Positions 14,761-58,568 of a stretch of DNA of 64,000 nt are shown piece by piece (the stretch's first letter is position 1; each line of letters opens with the position of its first letter). The notes under the pieces are model-generated. The model searched no databases. It saw only the letters and a program-made list of their open reading frames with translations, and was not told the origin of the DNA. The stretch is taken from the NCBI GenBank assembly GCA_022482735.1, contig JAKVOO010000001.1, positions 838,837-902,836 on the forward strand. Direction: 5' to 3'. Origin of the DNA: Bacilli bacterium (lineage in GTDB: Bacteria > Bacillota_I > Bacilli_A > RFN20 > CAG-826). The translations under genes and the position numbers were made by a program.

Positions 14761-14836
14761 TATTGTTTTCCTTTCCGATATTTGGTTTATGCAATAATAA
14801 ATCCCTTTTTATTGTTATTTTTCCAATGTTATCCTC

Positions 14837-16582: not shown

Positions 16583-16585
16583 AAT

Positions 16586-21855: not shown

Positions 21856-21869
21856 TTTCAGCGCTCCTT

Positions 21870-23719: not shown

Positions 23720-25236
23720 GCATATTTGGAAGTCGTTTTATCTAAAATCGTTTGACACCGGTCTTCTAAGCCTGATAGAAATTCACTATTAATTCGACTA
23801 TTAGTATTCCAATCCCAAACATTGAGATGACCTCCGTATGAAGAAGTTAACGACCAAACTCGAAACAGTTTATAGTTATCATCGGATGATTCCCACATTT
23901 CATCATACCAATCTGCGTTATAGGTGTAGGCTTGAGGCCGCCTTTCACTATTGGCCATCATATCAAGATATACTTGGCGATTTAACGGGCGATTATAACC
24001 CATAGTTGCATTTTTAGGGTCATTAATCGTTGCCTCCATAAATTCGCCATTAGCCATATCAATTAGATTCGGCACCGCTTGTCCTAATTGATAATTTATT
24101 TTTTGCGCCACCGGTGAAGCGGTTAAAAATTCGGCCAATTTATACGCGCCTTCTGGATCTTTACTACCTTTATAACAGGAAATACCCACTGATCCCAAAA
24201 AGGATTTTGATGATGCTCCACTGCGATATCCATCCTGCCAATTATCAAGATTGCCAGTGGCATTGGGAACTGGTGTATATAGAATATCCCAATCAAAATT
24301 GCACTCCCATAGTTCTGGTGTGTCCCAAGCTCCAACGAAAGCGGCTCCTGCTAAACCACTGGAAAAGCGTTGTAAGCCCGCTTGTGAGGCTTGACCTTCC
24401 GCCGTTGTCATTACTTGGTACTTGTTGGATAAGTCAGCAACAAATTGAAGTGATTCGGCAAAGTTATTATTATCAATGGTAACTGTTTTATTGCTAGCGT
24501 CTAAAAAGCGTTGTCCCATTGAAGCCATGGCGCTTTCTAATGGATAATGAGTAATACCTACAATAGAATTAGAGTCACTTAACGACCCTTCCTTTATGTC
24601 TTGGCAGAAAGCAACAAATTGTGCCCAAGTCATCGCCACTTTATCATTTAAAGTTTTCGTGGAAGGATTATATCCATATTGACCACTAACATCACTGATA
24701 ATTGTGACCCCTTTGCTTTGAACAAGCGTTTTGTTATAAGCCAAAACATTAGGTCCTAAATCCTTTGGCAAAGCATAGATATCCCCCGTTCCTAATCTTT
24801 TACTTGCCGTGTCATATCGATAGGCATCAATTCCTTCATTCCAAATATTGTCAATTGACATCGCACTTGATTGTTCAATATATGGGGTTAAATCCATCAT
24901 AATATCCGATGAGTTGATCCATTGAACAAAGTTGATATCCGGCATATAGAAGACATCCGGCATATTACGGGTGTTGTTCTTATAACTGCCTAAGGTCGTT
25001 ATGTAATTATCGGAAGTAACAGAAGAATATACGACATCATATTGAGGATATTCCTTAGTAAATTCCGCGATCATTGTTTTAAAAATTTGTTGCTCGGCAA
25101 CTGACCCCCAGCCAAAAAACTTCAGTACTGATTTTTTGTCACCGCTCGAATCAGAAGTTCCTCCGCAAGCTGAAAGTACTAAGGATAAAAACATTGTCGC
25201 CATAAATGAAAGGCTGATTTTTTTAGTTTTGCGCAT
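23713..25236 (-). CDS. Extracellular solute-binding lipoprotein (sugar ABC transporter).
   Basis: MRKTKKISLSFMATMFLSLVLSACGG lipobox. About 500 aa, SBP family 1 size. Confidence 0.8.
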   Translation of the reverse strand: MRKTKKISLSFMATMFLSLVLSACGGTSDSSGDKKSVLKFFGWGSVAEQQIFKTMIAEFTKEYPQYDVVYSSVTSDNYITTLGSYKNNTRNMPDVFYMPDINFVQWINSSDIMMDLTPYIEQSSAMSIDNIWNEGIDAYRYDTASKRLGTGDIYALPKDLGPNVLAYNKTLVQSKGVTIISDVSGQYGYNPSTKTLNDKVAMTWAQFVAFCQDIKEGSLSDSNSIVGITHYPLESAMASMGQRFLDASNKTVTIDNNNFAESLQFVADLSNKYQVMTTAEGQASQAGLQRFSSGLAGAAFVGAWDTPELWECNFDWDILYTPVPNATGNLDNWQDGYRSGASSKSFLGSVGISCYKGSKDPEGAYKLAEFLTASPVAQKINYQLGQAVPNLIDMANGEFMEATINDPKNATMGYNRPLNRQVYLDMMANSERRPQAYTYNADWYDEMWESSDDNYKLFRVWSLTSSYGGHLNVWDWNTNSRINSEFLSGLEDRCQTILDKTTSKYAW

Positions 25237-25394: not shown

Positions 25395-26326
25395 ATGCGG
25401 AAATTAACTTTAAATCTAAATGACGACAATATCTTAGAAAAGATTGGCGATTCGTTCTCCTCACCCATTCGGCGTAAGATTTTACGTTTGGTGGCCAATA
25501 AATCCTATTCTATATATGAGATTGCTCAAGAATTGAATTTATCAATGTCAACGACCTCCTTTCATATTAAGATTTTAAAGGAAGCGAAAACTTATTAAAG
25601 CTATACCTTCCCCCTCCAAAAAAGGAAATGAGAAAAATGTCTCAATTGAGTGTGAATCAATGACCATATTTGTTAATGGTGATTCGGAAATAAGTAATTT
25701 AAGAAAGATAGTCACTATTCCCCTTGGCTCTTTTATCGATTACTGACATTACTCCCCCCTGTGTAATTTGCACTAAAGAAATGGCTCTTCAACCTATTGA
25801 TGATCGCAATGTTTTTTTGTCACCCTCCCGTATTCAGGCCCAATTAATATCTTTTTATAAAGGGCATATTACTTTTCCTATTCCCCTTGATAAAGAAGAA
25901 GGAACCCAATTGGAATCGATAACTATTTTCATGGAACTTTGCTCTGAATGTCCCAACTACAACAATAGTTGGAAAAGTGATATTACTTTTTGGATTAATG
26001 GTCAAGAAATTGCCACCTACCTTTCACTAGGAGATTACGGCGATCGCCGTGGTGCTTACACTCCTTCGTGGTGGCCATCTAGTTCAACTCAATATGGCAT
26101 GCCCGTCAACCTCCGTATTGATATGGATGGCACTTATATAAATGGTGCCAAAGCTAGTTCGATAACCATTAATAGCCTTGGAATAAGAAACAATGAAGTT
26201 CTCCATTTTACTCTGGGAGTGAAGGATGATGCAAAATACGTTGGAGGCATTAACCTTTTCGGAAGAAATTTTGGGGATATAAATGAAGATATTACCGTGC
26301 AAATTGCCTTTGAAAGAAAAAAATAA
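25395..26326 (+). pseudogene. ArsR-type wHTH regulator with a ~200-aa C-terminal domain of unknown function, paralog of 42920..43853. Disrupted by at least 2 frameshifts into ORFs 25395..25598 and 25724..26326, with an out-of-frame homologous segment between them.
   Basis: HTH 'SSPIRRKILRLVANKSYSIYEIAQELNLSMSTTSFHIKIL'. The C-terminal domain shares 'ELCSE.PN.N.WKSDITFW.N..E..TY.SLGDYGDR.G..TP..WPS..QYG' and '..F..G.KDDAKYVGGINLFG.NFGD' with the paralog. The gap segment 'IVTIPLGSFIDY' aligns to 'LVEVPIGSYSAF' in a different frame. Confidence 0.65.
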
Positions 26327-30011: not shown

Positions 30012-31732
30012 TTAATCAACAATAATTTGAATTGGACATCCACGCCAATATGAGCCGCTGGACTTGAGTTGCAAATTTTGAACACCAACGATTATTGAAA
30101 CTTGCTGTCCAATATATGGTTCAAGCCAACTGAAATCATTAGCATTGTTTTGCGAATAAAGAGGAAGTCCAACCGATGAATCATCAAGCCCAAAAAAAGT
30201 GTATGAACCATATTGTCCCGATGATTTATAAACCGTGCAAGTTACAAGGTACATATTACCCGTAAGATTAGTACTCGGGCGGGTGGAAACAATTGCCTCA
30301 ATAGAATTAGTGCTATAGGCTGTAGAAGGAATAGCAAAGACATTACGATCAATGCTTAAAACCTCCGCCTCGGATAATTGAAAGTCGCCATCATACTCTT
30401 CGGCAGCGGCATTAGTGGCATCTTTAACATAGTGAGTAACTGTCGCCTGAATAACAACCTTATTTCCTTCTTCTAAGTCGATAAGGTTACCTTGAGTTGA
30501 GGTTCCATTATAGACAAACATAGACCCCGATTCGTCAGCGATAAAGAATCCTTGCTTAACCATTGAACTCTTGTAAGTTAATTTTGCGACTACGCCCTCA
30601 ACAGTAACAATTGTTCCGTCGCTTTCTTGTTTGGCCTCCGCTAGAGAAATAGTATCGATATCTGGTTTAGCAATAATAGTGAAATCCTTTGTTTTGGAAA
30701 CGGAAATTCCATTATAAGTCGCTTCCGCCACTAGCGAAACTTCGCCCAATATTTGTGACTTAATTGAAATATAATTGTTAGTCTCATCCGTTGTAATCGT
30801 GATTTGACTGGAAGAGGAAGTGTAAGCTATGGTAAGCCCCGCTACTTTCTCATCATTTTTAGCCATAGTTATAACCGTATCAACATTATAAGAATTTGCG
30901 ATTGGAAGCAATGCCCGATAAGCGCCTCCAGTGGCCACTTCTTCATCCGATATGGTTGTTTCACCCAAAATATTAATTGGACAAATCCGCCAAAGATTTT
31001 GTGATGGCTTGCCGATGCTGACAACAAATTCAATATCAACTAGTTTGCCATTCCATTCATTTGTCCAGGCGTAGTCCTTACCATTTGATTGAGTGTAAGC
31101 TAATAGTGTATCAGTAAGATTTGTATCTTCAATTTCGTAATTCACATAGCTAACATTGTCATAGACATGATAGTAAGCCTTAGTTCGATATATTTTGCCA
31201 GTAATATCTTCCGTCAATGGTATGGCATTTATATCCGCAACACTAAGGTTTGAAATAACTTCATTAGGAATTTCATTGTCGGTCTTATTGTCATTGCCAA
31301 CAATGACTGGTGAAGTTAATTGCACCATTCCCTTATAGTTAATAGCCGTGGCACTTCCAACATCATTTTGCGGAATATAATAGGCCTTAGTGCCTTGGAC
31401 CGTAACTTTATTTCCCGGCTGAACACTCTTTGCAACATCTTCGCCATAGATATATATACTGTCCGTCTGATCTGCTAACCAAAAGCCAGTTATATATGGG
31501 GTCGATTGCCCAGTATAATTATAAGCAACAACCACCCCAGTGACAGTAAAACTTTCGTTTACTTCTCCACTACGGGCGGCGGCAATCGAAACACTTGTTT
31601 CCTCGGAAGTCGTAACTTCCGATGTGTTTAATGATTCCAAACTGGATGATTCTGACGAAGTCATATCCCGACATGAGGCAGTGTAAATAAAGCAACAATA
31701 ACTAGAATAAGTGGAAATCTTTTGCGATTCAT
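30012..31732 (-). CDS. Surface lipoprotein with two OB-fold (tRNA_anti/YhcR-like) domains plus additional beta domains; function unknown. A 1-nt frameshift near ~31665 lies between the signal peptide and the body.
   Basis: ATG at 31732 gives MNRKRFPLILVIVALFTLPHVGI*. The body frame reads ...ASCRDMTSSESSS, so restoring one base gives the lipobox LASC. The repeats 'TVTGVVVAYNYTGQSTPYITGFWLADQTDSIYIYGE' and 'VTVEGVVAKLTYKSSMVKQGFFIADESGSMFVYNG' are OB-fold-like. Confidence 0.55.
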
Positions 31733-31879
31733 TTTTTTCTCCTATTTTAACTTTCTTCTTTTTTTGAACATCTTTTCCATCATAAAAAGTAGAACGCCAA
31801 AACATTCATCGCTTACCCATCACTCAAATAAAAAATTCACACTCCTTCCAAAGTAAACAAAAGAATGCTTTTTTGGGGG

Positions 31880-32802: not shown

Positions 32803-34290
32803 TTACTTAGATTCTTTTAGAACAAGAACGTTGATTGACTGGCCTTTTAAGGTAATTTTTTTCTCATCATTAATCGGTTCATCTATGGGTAATATTTGAT
32901 TGGGATAATCAAATGTGTTTTTAGCATGCAGTTGGCCACTTATTGAAATGTGTTTTCTAACAATTCCTAAATTACCATTTAAAATAACGTTAAGTTCACT
33001 ATCTTCAGGTGACTTATTTAAAATAAAAACACGATACTCATTTTCGTTCTTAACAACTGCACAATGAAGACTCTTAATGATTCCATAATGTGTATTGATT
33101 GTTTCAGAATCTACTATCGGCTTGATAGCAACTCCTTCAGAAAAAATTCTTGCAAGTTGAAATGGATAGTATATTGTTTGCTTAACCATTCTACCATTGT
33201 TTTCAGTCATAATTGGAGCAATAACGTTTACTAGTTGAGCTAAACAGCTTATTTTCACTTTGTCGCAATTATTAATAATAGAAATAATCAGTCCGAAAAA
33301 AGTTAGCGCATCTTCAAAGTCAAAGGTATTTTCTACTCTGCGGGGTCCTACTGTCCATTCATCTTCGTAATTGTTGTTGTAGACTTTCTCTTCCTTAATC
33401 GGTTTTTGATGCCATATATTCCATTCATCTAAAGAAAGAAAAACGTCATGTTTGCTTCTTTTCAATGCTTTGACGTATTTAATAACTGAAAAAGCTTCGT
33501 CAATATATTTTTCTAAATCAATATGTGATGACAAGTAATCAGCTGTTGAAAAATCTTTTTCTAATGAATAATAACGATGAATTGATAAAAAATTAACATC
33601 ATCATAAAGATGTTCAAGAATAACTCGGTCCCAAACTGGGTATGTCGGCTGCCAAGGTCCGGATGATCCTGAAGCGATAAGCGAAATTTTGGGATCAATC
33701 CATCTCATGACTTTAGCTGCTTCGTGTGCCTTACGACCATATTCATCCGCCGTAAGGGAATTGATTTGCCAAGATCCGTCCATTTCATTTCCTAAACACC
33801 AATATTTAATATTAAATGGGGATAAGTCACCATTTTTAATTCTTAAATTACTATACTCACTGCCACTGTTTATATTGCAATATTCCACCAACTCGCCGGC
33901 CTCTTTGGGTGTTCCAGTACCCATATTTACTGCCATCATTACATCAAAATTGGCTAGTTTGGAGTAATGCATAAATTCGTGAAGCCCAATTTCATTGGGC
34001 TCTATTTGTCTCCATGCCAAATCCAATTTTGGCTTACGTTTAGTGCCAATTCCGTCCTTCCAATTATATCCGGAGACAAAATTTCCGCCTGGATAACGTA
34101 CTAGTGGGAGGTTAAGTTCTTTTATACTAGCTAATACATCTGTGCGAAATCCCTCTTTAGTGATTTCTGAATGAGTTGGTTCATAAATGCCATGATAAAC
34201 ACTACGCCCCATATGCTCAATAAATGAAGAAAAAAGCAGTGGGGATATTTCAGAAATAATGTAGTCTTGATCTATTTTAATAGTGGCCAT
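32803..34290 (-). CDS. GH51 alpha-L-arabinofuranosidase (intracellular).
   Basis: N-terminus 'MATIKIDQDYIISEISPLLFSSFIEHMGRSVYHGIYEP' with 'YPGGNFVSGYNWKDGIG' and 'WCLGNEMDG' (catalytic Glu). 495 aa, no signal peptide. Confidence 0.9.
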   Translation of the reverse strand: MATIKIDQDYIISEISPLLFSSFIEHMGRSVYHGIYEPTHSEITKEGFRTDVLASIKELNLPLVRYPGGNFVSGYNWKDGIGTKRKPKLDLAWRQIEPNEIGLHEFMHYSKLANFDVMMAVNMGTGTPKEAGELVEYCNINSGSEYSNLRIKNGDLSPFNIKYWCLGNEMDGSWQINSLTADEYGRKAHEAAKVMRWIDPKISLIASGSSGPWQPTYPVWDRVILEHLYDDVNFLSIHRYYSLEKDFSTADYLSSHIDLEKYIDEAFSVIKYVKALKRSKHDVFLSLDEWNIWHQKPIKEEKVYNNNYEDEWTVGPRRVENTFDFEDALTFFGLIISIINNCDKVKISCLAQLVNVIAPIMTENNGRMVKQTIYYPFQLARIFSEGVAIKPIVDSETINTHYGIIKSLHCAVVKNENEYRVFILNKSPEDSELNVILNGNLGIVRKHISISGQLHAKNTFDYPNQILPIDEPINDEKKITLKGQSINVLVLKESK

Positions 34291-34360
34291 AAATGTTTTC
34301 CTTATAAATGTTCGATAAAACTTCCAGCAAAAAAGTTATTGCTGGAAGTTTTTTTAATGT

Positions 34361-36094
34361 TTAGGCAATGTAGAATAGTGGTCTTGACATGTTGAAACTA
34401 CCAGCATAAGTTCCATCGGGTATGGTTGTAGTAGAACAAATATAAAGTTCAATTTTAGCAATATCTTGGGTAACTTTTTGAGTAAAAACGTAAGTGTTTG
34501 ATTCTTCAACCTCAAAACTTCTAGAATAGATTTCGGTTTCTGATGCGTTTTTAAGTTTAATAAAAATATAGATGGTACTCGCCCCAGTATTTTTAAACCG
34601 CATAGCCATCAAATTGGCAGAATCCAAGCTATGATAGACTGTGGTTTTAATATTTTGCCAACTTCCTTTCGTTGCATTAGTATAACTCACCCCTACTGAT
34701 TGATTGGCTAAACTAGTAAGTGTATAGGTGGTATTCCCTGACCAAGTGGGTGCGTTTGTTAGGTTAATGAACCGCGGGTTGGTGACTATAAATGATCCAC
34801 TGGATGCTTCAGTAGGAATAGAACTGCTATATGAAGCAATATATAGTTCAATTTTGGTAACTGCACTAGTAACTAACTTTCGGAAGCTATAAGTTTCATT
34901 GGGATTAAAACTAATTGTCGACCAAGAAAATTGCTCATTACCGGATTGATCAGCTTTCAGTCTACTAAGAACTACTTGGACGTAAACGGGTGTAATGCCG
35001 GTATTTACAAAATCAAGTGCTACCGCATTGGATGTATTAATATCTTGAGTTGTTGCAAGATAAAGATTTTTCCATGATGAAGCGCCAATACTAGAGTAAG
35101 AAACGCTCATACGCCCAAAGTCAACTGCTGAATGAACATAATCGCTAGAACCGCTCCACGGTTTAGCTAAATCGACAAATTTCGGACTTGAAACAATAAA
35201 ACTTCCACTAGTGGCTTCATCCGGAACAGCCGAGCCATATGAGGCGATATAAAGTTCAATTTCTGTTACTTCTACGCTTAAAGCTTTTCGATAGTTATAG
35301 CTCTGTTCTGGTGCAAAATGAATTTCTTCCCATGAGAACTGATTGTTTGAGCCGTCTTTAAGAACAATTTGGACATATGCCGCATTGTTGCCTGTATTCG
35401 TAAAATCAAGCGCCAATCCACTTTCACTTGATATATCGTGAGAAACTGAAGTAAATAATCGACTATACGAGGTTTTTACAACTCCCGAATAGGTTACTTG
35501 CGTATTTCCATAGTCTAAATTGCTTGTTTCATAAATTGATGTTCCCTGCCAAGAATAATATACTGGCGCGCTGGGTTCACTGCATTCATGAATAATGGCG
35601 ACATTATTTAATTCTGAATCTTCTAATGCTTCAATTTCAAAATAACGGCTGTCACTTTCAAAATTAGTTATACCATCTACAACGACGGGAGTTACTTTTA
35701 AATTATCGTAATCATACCCCTCTTTAAGAAGCAGACTTCCAGAAGCGGCAATGGATATTGACTTAATGCCACCAATTGGTGAATCAATAGCATTGCGTAA
35801 CGTCCCGGAAGTTTTTAATTCGATATGCCCTAATGATGATTCAATGGCATTATCATATTCCATAATTACTGGATTACTCAAATAGGTTAATACCTCATAT
35901 GAATTGGAAGATGGGGTATTAGTTAGGCCTAAGGCTTGATTATTATGATCAAGTGTAATTCGATAATCCGTATAGCCAGAGTCAGCTTTTAAAAGAATAT
36001 TTGATGTATTATTCACTAGTGGCCACACAATAACCGAAACAGCTAAAGCAACACTTATAAAAAGATAGCGATAAAGTGACTTAATTTTTTTCAT
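34361..36094 (-). CDS. Secreted/anchored protein with three tandem ~125-aa beta-repeat modules of unknown family (putative glycan-binding).
   Basis: N-terminal signal-anchor. Three repeats with the recurring landmarks 'W.GS..Y', 'NTG....YVQ(I/V)VL', 'FSW..I.F....(S/T)Y..RK', 'IELYI(A/C)S' and 'SGSF'. Confidence 0.6.
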   Translation of the reverse strand: MKKIKSLYRYLFISVALAVSVIVWPLVNNTSNILLKADSGYTDYRITLDHNNQALGLTNTPSSNSYEVLTYLSNPVIMEYDNAIESSLGHIELKTSGTLRNAIDSPIGGIKSISIAASGSLLLKEGYDYDNLKVTPVVVDGITNFESDSRYFEIEALEDSELNNVAIIHECSEPSAPVYYSWQGTSIYETSNLDYGNTQVTYSGVVKTSYSRLFTSVSHDISSESGLALDFTNTGNNAAYVQIVLKDGSNNQFSWEEIHFAPEQSYNYRKALSVEVTEIELYIASYGSAVPDEATSGSFIVSSPKFVDLAKPWSGSSDYVHSAVDFGRMSVSYSSIGASSWKNLYLATTQDINTSNAVALDFVNTGITPVYVQVVLSRLKADQSGNEQFSWSTISFNPNETYSFRKLVTSAVTKIELYIASYSSSIPTEASSGSFIVTNPRFINLTNAPTWSGNTTYTLTSLANQSVGVSYTNATKGSWQNIKTTVYHSLDSANLMAMRFKNTGASTIYIFIKLKNASETEIYSRSFEVEESNTYVFTQKVTQDIAKIELYICSTTTIPDGTYAGSFNMSRPLFYIA

Positions 36095-36163
36095 AATTTA
36101 ATCCTTTCTTTTTGATATTTAAATTAATTTATTAAAATATAGAACATAAAAACAATAATCTTC

Positions 36164-38425
36164 TTATTCGGTTAAGTTTGAAAAAACGGGTTCAGTTAGT
36201 TCAAGTGATCCTGATGTCATTTCACCTCCTTCACCATTATAATTTTCAGCATTTGTCCAGATCATGATAGTTGAAACTTGACGTAATGTTGTAAATACTA
36301 TTTCTTTGGATTCGGAAACTCCCAGGAAAAAAGACGCATAAGTAATCTCCCCTTCTGCATCATATGCCTTAATGTAATAAAAGTTATCTTGACTACTTTT
36401 ATTTGTCAGGGAAAAAGAAATTGTGTTAAAAAGAGAAAAATCATAGTTGATGTCAGCGGATATATTTTGATTCCAGTCGCCGTTAGCAATTGAAGAATAA
36501 TTAAATGTCGTGAAATCTTGGGAAACAATTTGTGAATAACTACTGGTCGCTTTCCATGAACTTACCACATTGGCAAAAAGAGGATTACTCATAATAAAAC
36601 TTCCCGCATATGTTCCAGATGGAATTGACGATGTTGAACATATATAAAGTTCTATTTTCGTAATTTGGCGATCAACAATTTTAAAGTAATCATATGATTC
36701 GCCTTCCGACATTGAAAACTGGTTCCAAGCAAACTGACCACCACTTGCCGTCAACACAACTTGAATATAAACTGTTGAATCACTATTGTTAGCAAAAGAC
36801 ATCTCAACCGAATTTGTCTCTGGATACTGATGAATAACGTTAGCATATATATTGGACCAACTTGCAGACGTTATTTCACTATAATCGACCTTGACGGTTC
36901 CGTTTTGAAGATCGATTACTTGATATTTACTACTCCCATTCCAAGTTGGAGCAGGGGTCTCATTGGAGAAAATTGGGTTAGTTATTCTAAATGATCCAGC
37001 CGTCAAATCATTCGCTTCCCCAACATAAGAATGCGCATTAACAAAAACAACCATTTTAGCAATTGCTTCGTTTAAAACAAGTTTAATTACTTTCGAGGCG
37101 TTGGCATCAAGAGAGAAACCACTGGCTGCAACCTCACCTCCAGATTGATTTTGAGCTTTTACATAAAAGGAAGTACTTATATCGCCTAAATTTTCAATTG
37201 TAACTGAAACGACAATATAGTCTGGATAATTATTTCCGACAATTGCACTGATGTTTTGATCCCAGTTTCCATTGGACAAATCGGAAAAAGTAAATATTGA
37301 TTCTCCTGTTAATTTCTCATTGATAAATTTTCCTGTTCCGCTCCACATTGAGAGTGTGCCTGGATCTACATGCTTTAATTCATAACTTGAAATTTTAAAG
37401 GTCCCAGAATAAGTTCCGGCGGGAATACTATTAGTTGAAGAAACAAAAATAACAATTCTTCTAATAGCTTCACTCAAAGGAATAGATACTGCTTTTGTTT
37501 CATAAGCGTTAAGAATGATATTATCCCAAGTTAAACTGCTGCTATCATCACTGTTGCTACTTGCTACTGTTTTTATACTCAAATAGACTATCGTTGCGCC
37601 TGTATTTTCAAACATGAAAGCAACTGTATTTTGTGTTGGAAAATCCATACTTTCAATTGAAGTTGAAACATATTGCCATGAGCCTTTCGCCACCCCGGTA
37701 AAAGAAACGTTTGTTTCGTTTCCTAAAGAGGTAACCATCATTGCGCCACTACCAGACCATGGTGACGCAGATACAAGTTGCGAATCATCTGGCTTTGTGC
37801 TTGAAAACCAAGTTTCATGTATTGTTATAACTCCGCTATTAAGCGCGCCTTTTAGTCCTGGCTCTGCGATAAATTCAATTGAATCAACCGCATCAAGCAT
37901 CCATGCTCGCTCAGGATTGATATCATAGGAATAAGTATTAATTCCATTTTCAAGAGAAATAATCCGATCTGGACCAATAATAAGGTTAGAGGCAGTTTCA
38001 TCCATTATTCTAAGCAAAACTGTTTTGCCAACTTCGCCCGATAAAGTAATGTTTAAATACCGAAAACTTGTCGACATATTTTGTATTTCTGCAACAAGCG
38101 GGCAATATCCATCTAGTGAACCCGATTTCACATAACGAACCGCTGTAGAACCATCATTTTCTACAGTGACTTCCGTATATACAGTTTCGGATTCCGCCTG
38201 CCATTTAGCAAAATAAAAATCGCCAGTTCCTTCGTATATATTGGTAATTGGATTGCCAATTAGCGATGAGGTATCTGAACCGATTGAAGTCACTATCTCC
38301 GATGATGTTACTGTGTTTGAATTATCAGTAGATAATAATGATGAACTATTCGAAACATTACTACAGGCGACCAACAGTACCGAGAAAAGACCTAATATTG
38401 AGCTTGCAATCCGACTTTTCTTCAT
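36164..38425 (-). CDS. Large surface lipoprotein built from about six copies of the same ~125-aa beta-repeat module as 34361..36094.
   Basis: Lipobox LLVACSN. Repeats contain the 'IELYICSTSSIPSGTYAGSFIMSNPLF' and 'NTG..IVYLSIK' type motifs shared with the neighbouring gene. Confidence 0.6.
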   Translation of the reverse strand: MKKSRIASSILGLFSVLLVACSNVSNSSSLLSTDNSNTVTSSEIVTSIGSDTSSLIGNPITNIYEGTGDFYFAKWQAESETVYTEVTVENDGSTAVRYVKSGSLDGYCPLVAEIQNMSTSFRYLNITLSGEVGKTVLLRIMDETASNLIIGPDRIISLENGINTYSYDINPERAWMLDAVDSIEFIAEPGLKGALNSGVITIHETWFSSTKPDDSQLVSASPWSGSGAMMVTSLGNETNVSFTGVAKGSWQYVSTSIESMDFPTQNTVAFMFENTGATIVYLSIKTVASSNSDDSSSLTWDNIILNAYETKAVSIPLSEAIRRIVIFVSSTNSIPAGTYSGTFKISSYELKHVDPGTLSMWSGTGKFINEKLTGESIFTFSDLSNGNWDQNISAIVGNNYPDYIVVSVTIENLGDISTSFYVKAQNQSGGEVAASGFSLDANASKVIKLVLNEAIAKMVVFVNAHSYVGEANDLTAGSFRITNPIFSNETPAPTWNGSSKYQVIDLQNGTVKVDYSEITSASWSNIYANVIHQYPETNSVEMSFANNSDSTVYIQVVLTASGGQFAWNQFSMSEGESYDYFKIVDRQITKIELYICSTSSIPSGTYAGSFIMSNPLFANVVSSWKATSSYSQIVSQDFTTFNYSSIANGDWNQNISADINYDFSLFNTISFSLTNKSSQDNFYYIKAYDAEGEITYASFFLGVSESKEIVFTTLRQVSTIMIWTNAENYNGEGGEMTSGSLELTEPVFSNLTE

Positions 38426-38511: not shown

Positions 38512-39672
38512 TTATTCACCATACTTATCTAAATCTATAAAAGACCAAAATGCTTGCTTCGGCTCATGAAATTCATCAAATAATAAAGGCCAATTTTTTC
38601 TTCCGGAAACAGGATTGTTGTCAAGCCACGTAATGTCATCGGCAACCCCCCACATCGTTACCCCAGTTACTTTTCCATATGCGTCATTTTCTGGATGGGA
38701 GTATTTGCGAGCAATACCCATTATTTGACCATACATTGAAGCCTGTATTTTTGATAGTGATTCCGGAATTTCATCATAGGTAATTGGATATGTTGAGTAA
38801 GGATATATGGAAACATCCAATTCCGTTATTTGAACGTCTAATCCCCGCTCGACAATTGAACGGATGGTATTCTCAAATTCATCAATATTAAATGATCCTA
38901 AATAGTAATGAGCTTGAAGCCCAACTCCTTCAATTGGTGTTCCGTCTAAAGCAAATTGGTCAAGCATTTTTAATAAGGCCTCGCGCTTATTAGGGTAGTT
39001 GAGACCATAATCGTTGTAGAATAACTTAAAATTATAATTATTTTCTTGACGAACCCGATAGGCTTCTTTAAATGCCGATTCTATATAGTCAATTCCACAA
39101 ATAGCAAATAAATCTCCACCCGTTGCATCATTAGTCTCATCTCCTGTCCGATAAAAATCGCCACTTTCAACTTGCGCCAATGAAGGATAGTCACGCAAGG
39201 CTTCGTTTACAACATCCCAAACATAAACATCATCTTTAAAATGGTTTATTACGCCTTCAACATGATTTTCAATCCGAGAAATAAGCTTTTCTTTAGATGG
39301 ATTATCCGATAAAACATAACGCGGCAAAGATTTATACCAAACCAAAGTATGACCACGTACCCCTTTGCCATTTTCTTTTGCATACTCAACCATCGGATCT
39401 GAAGAAGAAAAATCAAACTGTCCCTCTAACGGCTCAGTAATCGACCACTTTGCCTCATATTCTTGCGTAATGCTATTAAAATTCGGTAGCAAATCCTCAT
39501 AAAGAGAAATTTTATTTTCCGTCAAAGCCGCGCCAATAGGAAAGTAATTAGCATAGACATCTTTTAACAAAGGTACAGTTACTTCAGAACTAGATGATCC
39601 GTTGTTTGGGGTTGAACATGCCGTTAAAAGACAAAGTCCAAACATCATAAGAAAATTAAGATTTTTTTTCAT
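38512..39672 (-). CDS. GH10 endo-1,4-beta-xylanase lipoprotein.
   Basis: Lipobox LLTACST. GH10 motifs 'VRGHTLVW', 'WDVVNEA' (acid/base) and 'ITELDVS' (nucleophile). Confidence 0.9.
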   Translation of the reverse strand: MKKNLNFLMMFGLCLLTACSTPNNGSSSSEVTVPLLKDVYANYFPIGAALTENKISLYEDLLPNFNSITQEYEAKWSITEPLEGQFDFSSSDPMVEYAKENGKGVRGHTLVWYKSLPRYVLSDNPSKEKLISRIENHVEGVINHFKDDVYVWDVVNEALRDYPSLAQVESGDFYRTGDETNDATGGDLFAICGIDYIESAFKEAYRVRQENNYNFKLFYNDYGLNYPNKREALLKMLDQFALDGTPIEGVGLQAHYYLGSFNIDEFENTIRSIVERGLDVQITELDVSIYPYSTYPITYDEIPESLSKIQASMYGQIMGIARKYSHPENDAYGKVTGVTMWGVADDITWLDNNPVSGRKNWPLLFDEFHEPKQAFWSFIDLDKYGE

Positions 39673-39675
39673 TTA

Positions 39676-40527
39676 TTACTCCTTTGATCCACCAACTGAG
39701 ACGCCGCCCACAATGTATCGTGATAAAAGAAGATAGACGACAATAAGTGGAATTACCGTTAGAAATAAACCATTATATATTGCTCCAATATCGGTCGCAT
39801 ACATGTTTGTTTTCAACATATTTACTACAAGAGGCATAGTATAAAGTTTTTCATCGCTGATTAAAATTGTTGGCATTAAGTAATTATTCCATGTGGCAAT
39901 AAATGTTCCTATCGCAATAGTAGCCAACGCTGGGATAGAAGTTGGAATGATTATGCGATTAAATATATTCCACTCACTTGACCCATCTATTCTTGCCGCT
40001 TCAATCATTTCAATATTTAAATTGGCTTTAAAATATTGAAAAAGAAAGAATACGTGCCCGGCACTGGCAATTGATGGAAGAATTAATGGTAAATAGCTAT
40101 CAATCCATCCCAATTGAAGCATAAACTGATAAAAACCAATGATTCCCAACTGTCCAGGAATCATAATAATGAATAAAACAAACGAATACATAAGTTTGTT
40201 GCCTTTAAAGTTATACACCTTGAATCCATAGGCGGTAAGAGCGGAAAAATATACCGAAAGAAAAGTACTTGATACGGATACGATAAGACTATTTAGCATC
40301 GCTCTCCAAATATTTAAGCCATGGCTGACAAGAGAATTAAAGTTTTTAAAGAAATAGTTCGACGGCAAAAACGAAACGAAGTTTTGCAATTCTAGGGTTG
40401 ATCTTGTCGCATTGACAAACAGCATATAGAATGGGAAAAGAGTCAATAGCAAATAAAATATTAATATGCCATATAATAGTGCCCGAATAAATTTGTCAAA
40501 AACTTCGCGAGTTAATGTTTTATGCAT
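39676..40527 (-). CDS. Carbohydrate ABC transporter permease (MalG-like).
   Basis: Multi-TM protein with the EAA region 'IEAARIDGSSEWNIFNRIIIP'. Confidence 0.85.
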   Translation of the reverse strand: MHKTLTREVFDKFIRALLYGILIFYLLLTLFPFYMLFVNATRSTLELQNFVSFLPSNYFFKNFNSLVSHGLNIWRAMLNSLIVSVSSTFLSVYFSALTAYGFKVYNFKGNKLMYSFVLFIIMIPGQLGIIGFYQFMLQLGWIDSYLPLILPSIASAGHVFFLFQYFKANLNIEMIEAARIDGSSEWNIFNRIIIPTSIPALATIAIGTFIATWNNYLMPTILISDEKLYTMPLVVNMLKTNMYATDIGAIYNGLFLTVIPLIVVYLLLSRYIVGGVSVGGSKE

Positions 40528-41445
40528 TTTTGTTTCCTCGCTCCTTGGTTATTCTAAAAACCAAAACACTTAAGATAACGGCAACTATTGTTAATATGAC
40601 TGAGCCAGGCTGAAGCTCCGCCAAAATTGTTATCACCGGTAAAACCTAGCTTATAAATAAATATAGCAATTGTTGTTGTTGCTTTTTGTGGTCCACCATT
40701 TGCGAAGCAAAAATGGGATATCGAAAACCTGAAGCCCTCCCACCATGCTAGTAACAAAGGTATATATTAAAACTGGCTTTATTATTGGAATCGTTATATG
40801 AAAGAAACTAGTAAATGGACCCGCTCCATCAATTAAAGCCGCTTCATAAATTGAGTCATTTACTCCAAGCATAGCTGCCATTATGACAATCATTTGAGGG
40901 CCTGTCCAAATTAGAAACTGAATGAAACATACAATTAGTCGCGTCCCCCATTCATCAAGTAAAAATTGGTAATCATCCGCAATCCATCCAAATTGATGGG
41001 CAATCATTGTTATCGTTCCTGAAGGGTGCGCGAACATTGAAGCAAACAAAGAGGCAATAGAAGCTGCCGTAATAATGTGAGGCATATAATATACGGTCTT
41101 AAAAATTGATTTTCCCTTTATCTTTAAACGCTTATTGGAGAAAATCCAAGCAAATGATAGCGCTAGGGTAAATTGAGGAACAAAATTTATAATCCAGATT
41201 ACAACGGTGTTTCCTAGCGAATACCAAAAATCACTATTTGTTGCCAGCCACTGATAGTTAGAAATGCCAACCATGTTGAATGTTGAGTTAAGCCCTCTTA
41301 AATCAGTAAAACTCAAAAATATTGTATAAAGAATTGGGTAGAGTCCAAATATCAAGTAAGCTATAAAAAAGGGCGCAACAAAGTAATAGCCATAACGGCT
41401 GTAATTAATTCTTTTTTTACTACTTCTACCAGTTGTCATTTTCAT
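40498..41445 (-). CDS. Carbohydrate ABC transporter permease (MalF-like). Two frameshifts in its 3' end (~40735 and ~40600) split it into ORFs 40651..41445 and 40554..40757, plus an untracked terminal frame.
   Basis: The main body has EAA 'YEAALIDGAGPFTSFFHITIP'. The shifted frame gives 'FANGGP...YKLGFTGDNNFGGASA'. The third frame gives '...VILTIVAVILSVLVFRITKERGNKNA*', ending at the ATG of the next permease. Confidence 0.7.
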
Positions 41446-42743
41446 TAGTTTATCTCGATATTGGGGTAAGTATTTCTTACGGTATTTTTAAATTGTGCCC
41501 AAGTCTTATCCAGTGTTTCGTAGCCACTATGACGAGTGGCATATGCAACAGCGCATTCTGAGAAAATTGCGCCGATTGATCCATCATATATGGAAACATT
41601 TTTCCCTGTAATTGACTCGGTTATTTCTTCAAATAATGGATAAGGATTTTGTCCCTGAAGAAAAGAGTTAGAAAAATCATTTTCAACTGCTTCTACAGTT
41701 AGTTTGTTCCCCGAGAAATCAGATTTATCCAATGCCCAGGCCTGAAGATAATCTTGATCGAAAGCCCGATAGTTCAAAAAGTCTTTTACAGCATTGGAAA
41801 CGGTCGTTCCTTTAATCCCAGCAAACCATGTCCCTCCATCAAAATATGGAGCTGGTCCTTGAATAAATCCCCAATCGTTTTCTGAAGTTTGATCACCTAA
41901 AGTTGCATTGGCCTCAAGATGATAATGAAGACCCCATGCCGCTAAAAAATAGCCAAATACATCGTTGCCTGATATGTCGCTAAACCATCCGCCACCTGGA
42001 TAGTATTCAACAGTTTCATTACTATACTTTTCGTCTTGCATCGTCCTCGTTAAATCTAAATAAGTGTTCCATTGTGGGTCTATTACTAGTTTTCCATCTT
42101 CCACCCAGCGTTGTTCACGTGTTCGATTAAACACTTTTTGGGCGGCATTAACATTAGAAACAATTTTCTTATCATTAGCTTTTAATTCAGCCGCTACATT
42201 TAAGAAATCATTCCAATTCGACAATTTTGTTTGAACGAAATCAGGAGAATCATCGCCCCATAATTGATCTGCAAAACTCCGTCGATAAAAGAATCCTCCC
42301 GGTGAAGCTTGATTGGATATAGCATATAGATTGCCATCATCTGCCGTGCCAACTTCATTTGTATATTCAAATAATTCTTGGTTGGCTCTTTCGGATAACC
42401 CTAGTTCGGTCAAATTAAGCAGTCTTCCACTTTCGACATATTTTCGAACGAAACTAATTTCCAGGGCAACCACATCAGGTAGGTTTTTACCAGTTCTAAG
42501 TGCCCCATCCAATTGCGTTTGATATGCATCTAATGGTTTAGTTACAATTGTTATCTTCTTTTCGGGGAAAGCCACTGAATAGTACTTTTCAATTGATTCT
42601 TTGGTTTCACTACTATATGTCCAAACAACCATAGCGCGGTTTTCATCTTCTCCCGATGAAAGATTTACATTTGTTCCGCCACATGATGCAAGAAGAAAAA
42701 GAAAGGCAAAATCAGTAAAAATCAAATTCTTAATTTTTTTCAT
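41445..42743 (-). CDS. Extracellular solute-binding lipoprotein (sugar ABC transporter).
   Basis: MKKIKNLIFTDFAFLFLLASCGG lipobox. 432 aa. Confidence 0.8.
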   Translation of the reverse strand: MKKIKNLIFTDFAFLFLLASCGGTNVNLSSGEDENRAMVVWTYSSETKESIEKYYSVAFPEKKITIVTKPLDAYQTQLDGALRTGKNLPDVVALEISFVRKYVESGRLLNLTELGLSERANQELFEYTNEVGTADDGNLYAISNQASPGGFFYRRSFADQLWGDDSPDFVQTKLSNWNDFLNVAAELKANDKKIVSNVNAAQKVFNRTREQRWVEDGKLVIDPQWNTYLDLTRTMQDEKYSNETVEYYPGGGWFSDISGNDVFGYFLAAWGLHYHLEANATLGDQTSENDWGFIQGPAPYFDGGTWFAGIKGTTVSNAVKDFLNYRAFDQDYLQAWALDKSDFSGNKLTVEAVENDFSNSFLQGQNPYPLFEEITESITGKNVSIYDGSIGAIFSECAVAYATRHSGYETLDKTWAQFKNTVRNTYPNIEIN

Positions 42744-42919
42744 ATAAATGTTCCTTTGAGTAATTTTTCAACTATGTAACCGCTTCTTCAATAAAATGTT
42801 ACGCTGACCACTTAAAGCAAGTCAAGTAATATTTATTAAATGATGAATTTTTTATTAACATTCATATTTTGTTGAATTTTAACTTGATTGTTTCTATCCT
42901 TTGTGTAAAATAATGGTAT

Positions 42920-43853
42920 ATGGCAAAATCAGTAACTTACACGCTGGAAAATGAAGAACAAATCGAGAAGATAGCTAGTGCTTTATCTTCCCCTTTAAGA
43001 CGACAAATAATTCGCCTTTCAACCGAATCGGGTTATTCTATTAAGGAACTAGCCGCGATTCTTAATCTTCCTTTATCTACTATTTCTACCCAAGTTAAAA
43101 AACTTAGTGAGGCCGGTTTAGTAACCGTTGCTAAGAATCCGGGAATTAAAGGTAACAATAAGGTGGTCTATCAGTTAATATCCAATGTGAACTTTAACTT
43201 GAGTATCTTTCAGAAGACAAAAGCAACGACGCGGTTAGTTGAGGTTCCCATCGGTTCATATTCGGCATTTGAAGTTGAGCCAACCTGTGGCTTGGTTAAC
43301 TCGCAGGGACTTATTCTTGGCTATGATAACCCCCATGCATTCTATTCTCCTGATCGGTTTTCTGCTGAGTTAGTATATTTTTCACGAGGATTTATTGAAT
43401 ATACCATTCCTCTTGATGATGACAGTCGGGGGCGAGTAACAGCCATATCCTGCAGTTTGGAATTATGTTCCGAGGCGCCTATGTCCAATTCCGATTGGAA
43501 AAGCGATATAACTTTTTGGCTTAATCAAAAAGAAGTGGGAACCTATCATTCTCTAGGCGACTATGGTGATCGGATGGGAAAGAATACGCCTGTTTCGTGG
43601 CCTTCCAACGCGTCACAATACGGAATGCTCGGTGAAGATAACCATCAATGAGCATGGTTCCTATATCAACGGTTCACTGGTTTCTAATCTAACCATTGAT
43701 AATCTTCCCTTAACCGACAGCCTTCTTCATTTTCGGATTGGATTTAAAGACGATGCCAAATATGTCGGGGGCGTTAATATCTTCGGTAAAAATTTCGGTG
43801 ATCATTCGCAAAATATTATCTTCCAAGTCACCTATGATGGATGTAAAGAATAA
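42920..43853 (+). CDS. ArsR-type wHTH regulator with a novel C-terminal domain, paralog of 25395..26326. One frameshift splits it into ORFs 42920..43651 and 43563..43853.
   Basis: HTH 'SSPLRRQIIRLSTESGYSIKELAAILNLPLSTISTQVKKLSEAGLV'. The C-terminal domain has 'ELCSEAP.SNSDWKSDITFWLNQKEVGTYHSLGDYGDRMGKNTP' and, after the shift, '..HFRIGFKDDAKYVGGVNIFGKNFGD'. Confidence 0.7.
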
Positions 43854-43867
43854 CCTAGAGGTAATTT

Positions 43868-45254
43868 ATGTTTTCTAAAGATTTTATTTGGGGAGCAGCA
43901 ACATCAGCGGCTCAAATTGAAGGTGCAGAATACGAAGACGGAAAAACGTCATCCATTTGGGATATAGCTTCTAGAATGAATGATGGGCGCTTTTCTCGCT
44001 TTCAAAAAACTCCGCTATCGTCATGCGATCATTACCATCGTTTTATAGAAGATGTTGCCATTATGAAAAAAATAGGATTAAAAGCTTATCGTTTTTCCAT
44101 AAGTTGGACGCGATTGATGAAAGAAGATATGAATACAATCAACCCCAAAGGTCTTCTTTTTTATAATCGGCTAATTGATGCCTTGCTTGAAGCCGGCATT
44201 GAGCCATTTATTACTATTTTCCATTGGGATTATCCACAAAGTCTTCTTGATCAAGGTGGATGGCAAAATGATAAATCTGTGACTTGGTTTGCCGAATACG
44301 CTAAAACAGTTGTCGAGCTTTTTTCCGATAGAGTTAAAAAATTCATAACTATTAACGAACCTGAGTGTTTTGTAAATCTCGGCTATTTAGATAAAAGGCA
44401 CGCCCCTTACTACCAGTTGCCTGAAGATGCTGTCTTCAAAATTGCTCACAATGTTTTAAAAGCTAATGGCTTAGCGACGATTTTAATGCGGCAAGTTGCA
44501 AAACAAAAAATTGAAATTGGACAGGCTTTTGCTTTAACTGGAGCTATTCCATTTTCTGAAGATGATAAAGATATTAATGCGGCAAAACATTGCTTTTTTA
44601 ATCATCCAGATAGTTCTTTTTGGGGTACTTGGTTTCTTGATACCATTATGAATGGGGAATATGACAAAAAGCGTCTGGCAAAAATTTCAATATCACCTGA
44701 TGTTCTAGATAAAGATATGAGAATAATTCACCAGACACCAGATTTTATAGGTTTCAATATGTACTCGGGAACACTGACAAAGCACTTAGGCGAAAATGAT
44801 TATCAACGCATGCCTGATCCCAATTGATTCCGACTATACAATGATGGACATTCCTATTGCCCCTTCTTGCCTATATTGGGCGGCAAGATTTCTATATGAA
44901 AAATATCATCTTCCAATCTACATAATGGAAAATGGCGTCGCAATCACCGATAGTCCCGATGAGAACGGCGACATAGACGATCCAGCACGTATAAATTTCA
45001 TTCGCGAGCACTTGATACACTTAAGTCGTGCATTAAAAGAAAAAATTGATGTTCGCGGTTACTTCTACTGGTCACTTTTAGACAATTATGAATGGGCCCA
45101 TGGCTATAGCAGAAGATTTGGGCTGGTCAGAGTTAACTTTGAAAATTATAAAAGGACTTTAAAAAAATCAGCTTACTGGTATGCTTCATTGATAAAAAGT
45201 AATGGCGAAATTTTAGAAAAGGAAAGGGTCGATAAAAATTATGGAAACTTATAA
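43868..45254 (+). CDS. GH1-family beta-glucosidase/6-phospho-beta-glucosidase. A frameshift near 44796..44827 splits it into two ORFs.
   Basis: N-terminus 'FIWGAATSAAQIEGA'. Acid/base 'FITINEPECF'. The nucleophile 'YIMENGVA' lies in the second ORF. The C-terminus 'WSLLDNYEWAHGYSRRFGLV' is classic GH1. Confidence 0.85.
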
Positions 45255-46505
45255 AACAAGTGTGCTTGTAGTAGGCGGAGGGCCTTCTGGTTTAGCGGCA
45301 GCTGTAAGTTGCTCAAGACTTGGAATAAAAACAACTTTAATTGAGCGCTTTGGTATTGTAGGAGGAAATCTTACTTTAGGACATGTTGCTCCTATTATGG
45401 GGGATGTTAGTCATGGAACAATCGTTGATGAAGTAATTAATTTGCTTAACCTAAAATGGGATGTCGCCCATGATATTGAAAAGACAAAAATTGCTCTTTC
45501 AAATTGGCTGGCTAACGAAAAAGTGGATTTATTTCTTCAAACAGTTGCCATTGGAACAATTATGGAAGGAAATACGATTAAAGGGGTTATTGCAAACAAT
45601 CCCTCCTGGTAACTTTCAAATTGATGCGGACATTATTATCGATGCAACCGGCAATGGTTCAGTTGCCGCTTTTGCTGGAGCTGACTATGAAATCGGTCGT
45701 ACAAAAGGATGGACTTACGCAACCTACAACCATTATGTTTACCATAAGTAATATCAGTCCCCTACAAAAAATTGAATGCCGGCACGAGGAAGATGATACC
45801 ATTCTTCCTGAAGGCAGTTACCTTGGTCTTTGTCGAAAAGCATCACTTACTGGCGAATTGCCAAAGAATGTCAACATCGTTCGTTTGTATCGCTGCGAAA
45901 AGCCAGACGAAAGAGTTGTAAATGCCACACAAGCCAATGGAGTTAATGGCTTAGATGGTCAGCAATTAGCTAAAGCAGAAAATATTTTGCGCCAACAAGA
46001 AGAAATGATTTTTAATTTTTTGAAAAAGCATGTCCCGGGATTTGAAGATTCCCAAATCAAAAAAAGCGCTGATACCGTCGGAGTAAGGGAGACAAGACGA
46101 ATTATTGGAGAATACCAACTTACCGACATTGATTTAATGAATGGGCAAAGATTTAATGATGTTATGGTTCACAAGGCAAATTTCGCCATTGATATCCATA
46201 ATCCATCTGGCCCTGGGCAATCTGAATCTGATGGATGTCCTCGCCACCCTAAACCATATGACATCCCCTATCGCTGCTTTGTCCCTAAAAAAATTGACAA
46301 TCTATTTGTAACAGGACGCTGCATATCCGGAACTCACGAAGCTCACGCTAGTTATCGAGTAATGCGCATATGTATGGCTATGGGGCAGTCAATCGGTACT
46401 GCAGCCGGACTTTGTTTAAAGGAAAAACAAATTCCAAGAACTTTAGATTATAGAAAAGTTCAAGAAGCGTTAATGGCTGTTGGCGTTGATTTATTCAGCG
46501 AATAA
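45241..46505 (+). CDS. FAD-dependent oxidoreductase (FAD_oxidored/PF12831-like). Two frameshifts (~45600 and ~45720) split it into three ORFs.
   Basis: Rossmann motif 'VLVVGGGPSGLAAAV'. The middle ORF has 'IDADIIIDATGNGSVAAFAGADYEIGR'. A long C-terminal domain follows. Confidence 0.75.
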
Positions 46506-58289: not shown

Positions 58290-58568
58290 CGGGAGAAAAT
58301 AAAAAACGATTTTCTCCTTGCTTTCACAGGGACGAAAATCGTTCAGATATTCCGCGGTACCACCCTAATTATGGCCATTGCCATCACTTATCGAGTCCAA
58401 CAACTCTAGTCGTTTTAACGGACAACTACCGGGAGTGCCTACTAGTTTCAGCCTCCGACTCCGAAGTGTATATTTTGTTTCGATCTAATTTCCATTTGCA
58501 CCGCGACTGGACTCTCTAAATTTAGATTTGAAACTTTTCTCTTCATCAACGTCTTTTAATATTTGGTT
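58290..58568 (-). ncRNA. T-box riboswitch leader with a complete architecture. The specifier reads as UAC (Tyr) and the antiterminator bulge as UGGU. It is followed by an intrinsic terminator and then the RBS of the lyase gene.
   Basis: Promoter TTGACT (58602..58597), 16-bp spacer, TAGAAT (58580..58575). Stem I has GATGAAGAG and AGAGAG elements. Specifier loop '...AAAAUAUAC-A-CUUCGG' (58470..58468), parallel to the glyQS 'AAGGCA-CUUCG'. F-box CCGTTA (58421..58416). T-box AATTAGGGTGGTACCGCGG (58370..58352). Terminator AACGATTTTCGTCC...GGAGAAAATCGTT + TTTTTTATTTT (58344..58296). Confidence 0.85.

Follow-up and report, generated by a model that had tools for sequence, protein, structure and literature searches.

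What do two adjacent genes for repetitive proteins of unassigned family contribute to a bacterial xylan-utilization locus? The question is raised by a 64,000-nucleotide stretch of a Bacilli bacterium contig (JAKVOO010000001.1, positions 838,837 to 902,836; assembly GCA_022482735.1), here called the window, in which genes encoding proteins of 753 and 577 amino acids (B753 and A577) lie between the genes for a glycoside hydrolase family 10 (GH10) endoxylanase and a GH51 alpha-L-arabinofuranosidase. An initial annotation, made from the sequence, described both proteins as arrays of a repeated beta-strand module and proposed that they capture glycan. The two open reading frames (ORFs) were found at exactly the coordinates given there, each with a strong Shine-Dalgarno site (Table 1). 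We conclude that the window holds a known type of carbohydrate-binding module (CBM) fold, as predicted by modeling, in an unusual standalone arrangement that is conserved among Bacillota xylan loci of the GH10 type, and that B753 and A577 are probably noncatalytic, membrane-tethered glycan-binding proteins of a Gram-positive xylan-utilization locus.

Repeat architecture of B753 and A577

When residues 300 to 432 of A577 were used as a seed, phmmer retrieved other modules at E values of 2e-30, 2e-17, 2e-21, and 2e-12 and two weaker copies at 1.6e-4 and 0.02, both of which were confirmed by an iterated hidden Markov model (HMM). We conclude that module repetition in the two proteins is far beyond chance. 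Three modules were delimited in A577, as first annotated, and five rather than about six in B753, of which four are clear and one, module 0, is divergent and came to light only with a homologue-enriched HMM. Stretches of module 0 (GDFYFAKWQAE ... AEPG ... ITIHETWF) are kept as invariant alignment columns in the orthologues P0003, P0004, and P0008. The motifs W-S-G..Y, N-T-G, F-S-W, I-E-L-Y-I, and S-G-S-F, given for the module in the initial annotation, recur in the module alignments. Besides its modules, B753 carries a Ser/Thr-rich linker and A577 an N-terminal region of about 135 residues. The latter region matched nothing in Pfam at E ≤ 10 and was rejected as a cryptic module, its hhalign probability against the module profile being 0.1%. 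No further module was found when the module HMM was run against all other proteins of the window; the ORFs of 753 and 581 amino acids at 14.8 to 18.8 kb were rejected as paralogues and are GH43 and GH2 proteins.

The N termini of the two proteins differ. The lipoprotein assignment of B753 is upheld by its lipobox (LLVAC), and the signal anchor assigned to A577 could equally be a cleavable signal peptide. A577 has no C-terminal anchor and is presumably a surface protein. The nearest relative of its modules is module 3 of B753 (43 to 45% identity), and we conclude that A577 is a lineage-specific duplicate.

The gene order first proposed for a xylan operon, running from a substrate-binding protein (SBP) gene through two permease genes and GH10 to the module pair and GH51, is correct as an order, but GH51 probably does not belong to the unit: it is separated from A577 by a hairpin and is not a conserved neighbor. 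The hairpin has a predicted stability of −20.4 kcal/mol (z = −5.7), and none of 200 shuffled sequences was as stable. A hairpin of this strength after A577 indicates that the core transcription unit probably ends there, in which case GH51 would be expressed from a unit of its own or by read-through.

Module family, GH16 fusions, and predicted fold

Neither A577 nor B753 matched Pfam (whole proteins, E ≤ 1), NCBIfam, or PDB sequences (phmmer), and single modules matched nothing in Pfam at E ≤ 10. The module scored below the Pfam sequence threshold of CBM_11 and was likewise not recognized by PF02018 (CBM_4_9) or the other Pfam CBM models; the PF02018 result is meaningful because another protein of the window matches that model at 1e-28. 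Single-repeat HMM searches, a check recommended at the outset, gave no confident match to a known non-carbohydrate-binding domain in Pfam or PDB sequences. A profile of 55 modules gave a marginal, co-linear match to CBM11 among PDB sequences (E = 1e-3, 22 bits, about 100 positions) and higher-scoring partial matches, of about 50 positions, to HYDIN/ASH and designed immunoglobulin (Ig) domains. The HYDIN and designed-Ig stretches were each individually nonsignificant (independent E values of 0.3 to 0.5) and centered on the "tvtltNtG..v.v.v" hairpin, and sub-threshold CARDB, DUF1573, and PLipase_C_C matches in homologues had the same N-T-G hairpin as their origin. No CARDB, ASH (HYDIN), or DUF1573 match exceeded its gathering score, the partial sums covering about 50 of 130 residues. 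An Ig-like/ASH identity was rejected, the HYDIN/CARDB matches being partial, individually nonsignificant, and limited to the hairpin. We conclude that the module is unannotated in Pfam, NCBIfam, and PDB; it may still belong to an existing CAZy/dbCAN family that has neither a Pfam model nor a structure. No account of the module, or of any Firmicutes lipoprotein that binds xylan as a standalone protein, emerged from a literature search, which is not proof that they are undescribed.

A word-indexed homologue search returned only the query proteins themselves, near-identical fragments, and two weak matches, and the family was exposed instead by an exhaustive profile search. The seven window modules were combined into a profile, which, when run against 1.84 billion representative proteins, retrieved 104 at E ≤ 1e-3, of which 36 reached E ≤ 1e-10 and 7 reached E ≤ 1e-30. 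Together with two fragments found earlier, these make a set of 106 proteins in which an iterated HMM delimited 355 modules, 1 to 9 per protein; a lipobox is present in 66 of the 90 full-length members. Scans of genome contigs found nothing with B753 alone and only one Paenibacillus genome with the orthologue alignment. The few named members are entered as "hypothetical protein" in Paenibacillus sp. GCM10027626 and P. paeoniae and, in an Erysipelotrichaceae metagenome-assembled genome (MAG), as "glycosyl hydrolase family protein." A survey of distribution had been called for by the initial annotation, and we conclude from it that the module family is real but rare. Its standalone multimodule form, the one typical of GH10 xylan loci, ranges from Paenibacillus through uncultured Bacilli with small genomes to a contig of gut-metagenome origin.

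The closest relatives of B753 have no catalytic domain, and other members are extended by an enzyme. Fifty-eight family proteins have more than 200 residues N-terminal of the first module, and a Pfam scan of 53 of these revealed a GH16 catalytic domain in 49 (best E value, 4.5e-75), followed by two to nine modules. At least one of the GH16 lipoproteins comes from an Erysipelotrichaceae MAG. Of the remaining extended relatives, one has BNR_2 together with an SGNH esterase, and another has GDPD. The consensus of the GH16 domains is EIDIEFLGKDTTKVQFNYF, which we take to resemble that of Bacillus-type lichenases. One GH16-type family gene adjoins a GH3 gene. The weakest member examined, P0085 (988 amino acids, six modules; positions 10001 to 12967 of L013, JGI 3300064362), neighbors a glycoamylase-family gene (PF10091), LacI, two SBP genes (one product of 970 amino acids), and permease genes. 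This neighborhood suggests that glycan loci of other kinds have also recruited the module family. The 49 GH16 members, in which several beta-sandwiches of about 130 to 150 residues follow the catalytic domain, have exactly the plan of the characterized GH16-(CBM4)x4 beta-glucanases of Firmicutes, BpGH16MLG from Blautia producta and Lic16A from Clostridium thermocellum (PMC10318527). The present family differs in that its modules are not CBM4 by sequence, its members are lipoproteins, and A577 and B753 have no catalytic domain.

Structure prediction of A577 module 2 by AlphaFold2 was mediocre when only the seven window modules were supplied (predicted local distance difference test [pLDDT] of 70.5). 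With 55 diverse family modules, the same copy was modeled as a beta-sandwich of about 10 strands at a pLDDT of 96.4 and a predicted template modeling score of 0.89. The top Foldseek matches of this model were CBM4, CBM11, CBM22, CBM6-xylopentaose, and the surface glycan-binding protein SGBP-B, with E values of 2e-4 to 1e-3 and template modeling (TM) scores of 0.5 to 0.6, and the modeled beta-jelly-roll was superimposable on CtCBM11. The single-repeat prediction that had been proposed as a check thus gave a confident CBM-type jelly-roll, with the Bacteroides SGBP-B among its top structural matches. We conclude from the model that the module is predicted to be a beta-jelly-roll of about 130 residues of the CBM4/CBM11/CBM22 type, perhaps very distantly related to CBM11. 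The earlier statement that it belongs to no CBM, Ig, or lectin family therefore holds for sequence but not for fold, where it groups with CBM4/11/22-type beta-sandwiches.

The module nevertheless stands apart from the families that it resembles. CBM11 of C. thermocellum Lic26A-Cel5E (1v0a, 2lro, 6r31) is only 13 to 15% identical to it, with no Pfam match, and its motifs differ from those of the module (WSG..Y, SW.N, N-T-G, D/N-S, and SGSF); moreover, the module occurs in long tandem arrays and in standalone lipoproteins of xylan loci. The type-B xylan/glucan modules of CBM4, CBM22, and CBM6 (1gui, 4xun, 2w5f, 1uxx) show no sequence relationship to it, and here the modules are carried on a separate lipoprotein rather than on the GH10 polypeptide. 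Aromatic residues are conserved, in numbering from A577 residue 312, at position 2 (W/F), Y8, Y22, and W78 and at position 30 (W/Y, 99% aromatic), which lies in a loop. These positions are no more than candidate ligand contacts.

Conserved pairing with GH10 and proposed role

The order SBP, permease, permease, GH10, module protein is kept in about nine independent loci. Wherever the contig of a B753-like gene was readable, a module-only gene lay directly downstream of GH10, with gaps of 13 to 90 nucleotides. The GH10-adjacent set comprises P0003 (three contigs), P0004, P0008 (from Paenibacillus sp. GCM10027626; WP_379334704.1), P0011/P0113, P0050, P0070, the metagenome loci L016/L018 and L019, and L015, another assembly of the species to which the window belongs. 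GC content ranges from 36 to 57% across these loci, and their accessory genes vary, being GH2 and an SGNH esterase; xylose isomerase, xylulokinase, and GH43; or GH43, LacI, and GH1. All GH10 proteins examined at module loci were single-domain lipoproteins without a CBM. One more orthologue, in L017, is on a contig labeled human gut metagenome and has no upstream flank. Neither a second A577-like gene nor GH51 was found at the other loci examined, and we conclude that both are specific to the window's lineage.

Free-standing, multivalent xylan binding is the most likely role of B753 and, by descent, of A577, given the predicted fold, the lipid anchor, the CBM-like attachment of the module to glycoside hydrolases, and the strict pairing with a GH10 lipoprotein that lacks a CBM. 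We count as established how the genes and repeats are organized, the lipobox, the fold, how the family is distributed, its fusions to GH16, and its GH10 synteny, and from these we infer carbohydrate binding, a xylan ligand, surface exposure, and cooperation with GH10. That the organism does use free-standing CBM proteins is indicated by a 669-residue lipoprotein with three CBM_4_9 modules elsewhere in the window, the gene of which adjoins another sugar SBP gene (4288 to 5592) and permease genes. In B753, a lipid anchor at Cys21 and the Ser/Thr-rich linker of about 35 residues would set the five modules off the membrane. The string of modules would then grip xylan or arabinoxylan multivalently and hold the chains beside the CBM-less GH10 lipoprotein, and the xylo-oligosaccharides released by GH10 would pass to the SBP and be imported through the two-permease ATP-binding cassette (ABC) transporter. 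Debranching and degradation of the imported products would follow in the cytoplasm, through GH51 and other enzymes. A577, as a duplicate of the B753 module 3 type with a different N-terminal domain, may add binding capacity or a second specificity.

Glycan capture by a counterpart of the Bacteroidetes SusE/F proteins, as originally suggested, agrees with the fold, the GH16 fusions, and the synteny if the relationship is one of function, binding and the xylan ligand being the parts that we only infer, whereas homology finds no support. B753 shares with SusE/F-like surface glycan-binding proteins (SGBPs; BtSGBP-B, 7kwb/7kwc) an N-terminal lipoprotein signal (LLVAC), which A577 lacks, and both proteins share with them a noncatalytic make-up of what are predicted to be tandem, CBM-like beta-sandwiches. 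In contrast, there is no sequence homology (5 to 15% identity to BtSGBP-B in structural alignments), and no susC/susD pair was seen at the module loci, all of which use an SBP and two ABC permeases. The anchor is in the outer membrane there and in the cytoplasmic membrane here, and here the repeats are uniform and of one family. We conclude that B753 and A577 are analogues, not homologues, of SusE/F. Among Gram-positive bacteria, Sas20 and Sas6 of Ruminococcus bromii and the tapirins of Caldicellulosiruptor are noncatalytic surface or secreted proteins that bind the polysaccharide being degraded; they differ in fold, in anchoring (dockerin or other), and in substrate (starch or cellulose). To our knowledge, none of their genes is a conserved member of xylan loci of the ABC type.

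Several points weigh against xylan capture. The structural likeness is at the level of fold only (6 to 15% identity, TM scores of 0.5 to 0.6), and beta-sandwiches also serve as spacers and in protein-protein binding. Different subfamilies may have different ligands: beta-glucan is suggested by the fusions to GH16, and the locus of P0085 is GH144-like. The strict adjacency to GH10 fits a protein partner of the enzyme equally well, and one alternative is that the module protein binds the neighboring GH10 lipoprotein, and perhaps the SBP, instead of glycan, as a scaffold of a surface complex or a modulator of the xylanase. The gene directly follows GH10 in every GH10-type locus, at the short gaps given above, and beta-sandwich modules commonly mediate contacts between proteins. 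The module is, however, also fused to GH16, BNR_2/SGNH, and GDPD and is found in a non-GH10 locus, a distribution that fits poorly with an interface specific to GH10, and its nearest structures are glycan-binding modules. We consider a purely protein-binding role unlikely, and note that both roles can coexist. The sub-threshold, partial Ig-like matches (CARDB, ASH/HYDIN, DUF1573, and PLipase_C_C) around the N-T-G hairpin also count against xylan capture, in that the modules could be an inert Ig-like spacer or stalk that provides length only, for example across the cell wall, and has no ligand of its own. The high and variable copy number (2 to 9) and the Ser/Thr-rich linker would suit a stalk, but module-only proteins would display nothing at its tip, and in the GH16 fusions the modules lie C-terminal and distal to the catalytic domain rather than between the enzyme and its lipid anchor. 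Moreover, the confident model fits CBM jelly-rolls of about 130 residues and not seven-strand Ig domains, the HYDIN and designed-Ig matches are individually nonsignificant (0.3 to 0.5, as above), and conserved aromatics lie in or beside loops (position 30, 99% W/Y; position 78, W). An inert spacer is accordingly rather improbable.

A further objection is that B753 (nine frameshifts) and the SBP gene (an insertion sequence [IS]) are broken in two sister assemblies, L001 and L002, and that the permease and regulator are truncated in the window, such that the locus may be dispensable or decaying in the window's species. That A577 and B753 are themselves decaying or dispensable remnants without current function here would agree with the division of B753 into five ORFs in L001/L002, with the IS element there, and with the truncated permease, regulator, GH1, and other genes of the window. 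It is very unlikely given that B753 is intact (753 amino acids) in at least 10 independent assemblies and A577 is 577 amino acids long in many (e.g., L015), that most of the indels are single-nucleotide homopolymer changes typical of long-read errors, and that orthologues are intact in distant genomes. Repetitive surface beta-sandwich proteins with orthologues in the human gut metagenome might alternatively serve as a general adhesin or surface coat for host mucus, cells, or particles, unrelated to xylan metabolism, and the small genome (a 1.48-Mb contig) suggests a host- or community-dependent organism. The xylan-locus position across genomes of 36 to 57% GC and the glycoside hydrolase fusions tie the family to polysaccharide breakdown instead and render an adhesin highly improbable.

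The role that we favor, xylan capture at the membrane, bears on how Gram-positive polysaccharide utilization loci (gpPULs) are described. The window locus, with GH10 (and GH51), an SBP, two permeases, and an HTH_5 regulator, fits the gpPUL definition of a 2026 transporter review, which has no SGBP component (PMC13543919), and according to a 2023 Blautia paper, SGBPs are missing from gpPULs, their role being taken by CBMs borne on the enzymes (PMC10318527). The components listed in current accounts are enzymes, a transporter, and a regulator. To such descriptions, a standalone binder that is conserved would add something real, if modest. Tentatively, the module may go further and found a new CBM family, be the first conserved standalone SGBP of ABC-type gpPULs, and form with the CBM-less GH10 and the SBP a complex for capture, cleavage, and import, all of which is possible but doubtful at present. 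Such a complex would be a monoderm counterpart of the Bacteroidota utilisome and would contradict the statement that gpPULs lack SGBPs. Confirmation of binding would establish a new CBM family for proteins so far called "hypothetical protein" in named entries, improve the annotation of gut and digester metagenomes, and provide a compact model for the retention of polymeric xylan at the membrane of monoderm or wall-reduced bacteria. Being small, poor in cysteine, and confidently predicted, the modules should be easy to express and test.

Locus integrity and other features of the window

The sister contigs L001 and L002 are 99.1% identical to the window. At the window equivalent of about 42350, an IS element of 1.3 kb (rve transposase) breaks their SBP gene, with an overlap of about 9 bp. 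Their B753 gene contains nine shared 1-nucleotide indels (window equivalents 36605 to 37853), mostly in short homopolymers, and substitutions are not elevated. The indels of these contigs are concentrated in this one gene. Because B753 is intact in the other assemblies counted above, long-read errors are the simplest explanation of the frameshifts, and strain-specific decay may be an alternative. Within the window, comparison with the sister contigs attributes the truncation of permease 1 to 1-nucleotide insertions at about 40704 and 40607. The regulator is shortened near 43630 (243 versus 310 amino acids), and a GH1 gene (319 plus 152 amino acids; 43868 to 45254) and a gene for an FAD oxidoreductase (123 plus 294 amino acids; 45241 to 46505) are each split. 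The apparent frameshifts of this interval (40607 to 46505) are either long-read MAG assembly errors or gene decay.

Table 1. Features of the module locus and of the rest of the window (window positions)
Feature	Position	Strand	Remarks
B753 gene	36164-38425	−	753-residue lipoprotein ORF; strong Shine-Dalgarno site AAGGAGG; NCBI MCH3976800.1 "hypothetical protein," LKE36_04290 (exact match)
B753 signal peptide	38363-38425	−	Lipobox L-L-V-A-C, Cys21; from translation
B753 Ser/Thr/Asn-rich linker, residues 22-57	38255-38362	−	Low complexity, no module HMM match
B753 module 0, residues 58-206	37808-38254	−	Divergent; homologue-enriched HMM, independent E value 1e-6
B753 module 1, residues 220-351	37373-37768	−	phmmer/HMM
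B753 module 2, residues 358-486	36968-37354	−	phmmer/HMM
B753 module 3, residues 492-617	36575-36952	−	phmmer/HMM
B753 module 4, residues 621-748	36182-36565	−	phmmer/HMM
A577 gene	34361-36094	−	577-residue ORF; Shine-Dalgarno site AAAGAAAGGA; NCBI MCH3976799.1 "hypothetical protein," LKE36_04285
A577 hydrophobic signal/anchor, residues 1-27	36014-36094	−	No lipobox cysteine
A577 N-terminal region, residues ~38-170 (~135 residues)	35585-35983	−	Not a module
A577 module 1, residues 177-306	35177-35566	−	phmmer/HMM
A577 module 2, residues 309-442	34769-35170	−	Copy modeled by AlphaFold
A577 module 3, residues 447-575	34370-34756	−	phmmer/HMM
Terminator-like hairpin	34317-34352	−	14-bp stem, then UUUUAU; 9 nucleotides past A577 stop
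GH51 alpha-L-arabinofuranosidase	32803-34290	−	Alpha-L-AF_C 2e-32; no signal peptide
GH10 endoxylanase lipoprotein	38512-39672	−	PF00331 5e-76; lipobox LLTAC; single catalytic domain, no CBM
ABC permease 2	39676-40527	−	BPD_transp_1 type in orthologous loci
ABC permease 1	40651-41445	−	C-terminally truncated: 264 residues versus 307 in sister contigs
Sugar ABC substrate-binding lipoprotein (SBP)	41445-42743	−	
HTH_5/HTH_20 regulator, divergent transcription	42920-43651	+	243 residues in window versus 310 in orthologous loci
CBM_4_9 lipoprotein, 669 residues	6722-8731	−	Bact_surface_Ig-like plus three CBM_4_9 modules, no catalytic domain
Second hemicellulose locus	12362-25236	−	507-residue SBP, two permeases, 538-residue protein without Pfam match, SGNH esterase
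200-residue ORF	25724-26326	+	Resembles C-terminal half of HTH_5 regulator; shared SDITFW.N..E..TY.SLGDYGDR
597-residue ORF	30012-31805	−	Ser/Thr-rich N terminus; sub-threshold OB-fold hints tRNA_anti_2, MCM_OB
T-box leader	58325-58558	−	RF00230, 98 bits; agrees with a Bacillota origin

No tRNA genes were found in the window. The second hemicellulose locus also encodes a GH43 protein with a 3-keto-disaccharide-hydrolase-like domain, a GH2 protein, and an 810-residue LamG/DUF6250-like protein; its GH43 protein is 753 residues long in the window versus 820 to 821 in other assemblies. The 597-residue ORF, two genes downstream of GH51, may encode another surface protein. The 200-residue ORF neighbors the second hemicellulose locus and, judged by the stretch that it shares with the HTH_5 regulator, has the look of a regulator gene that is either paralogous or truncated.

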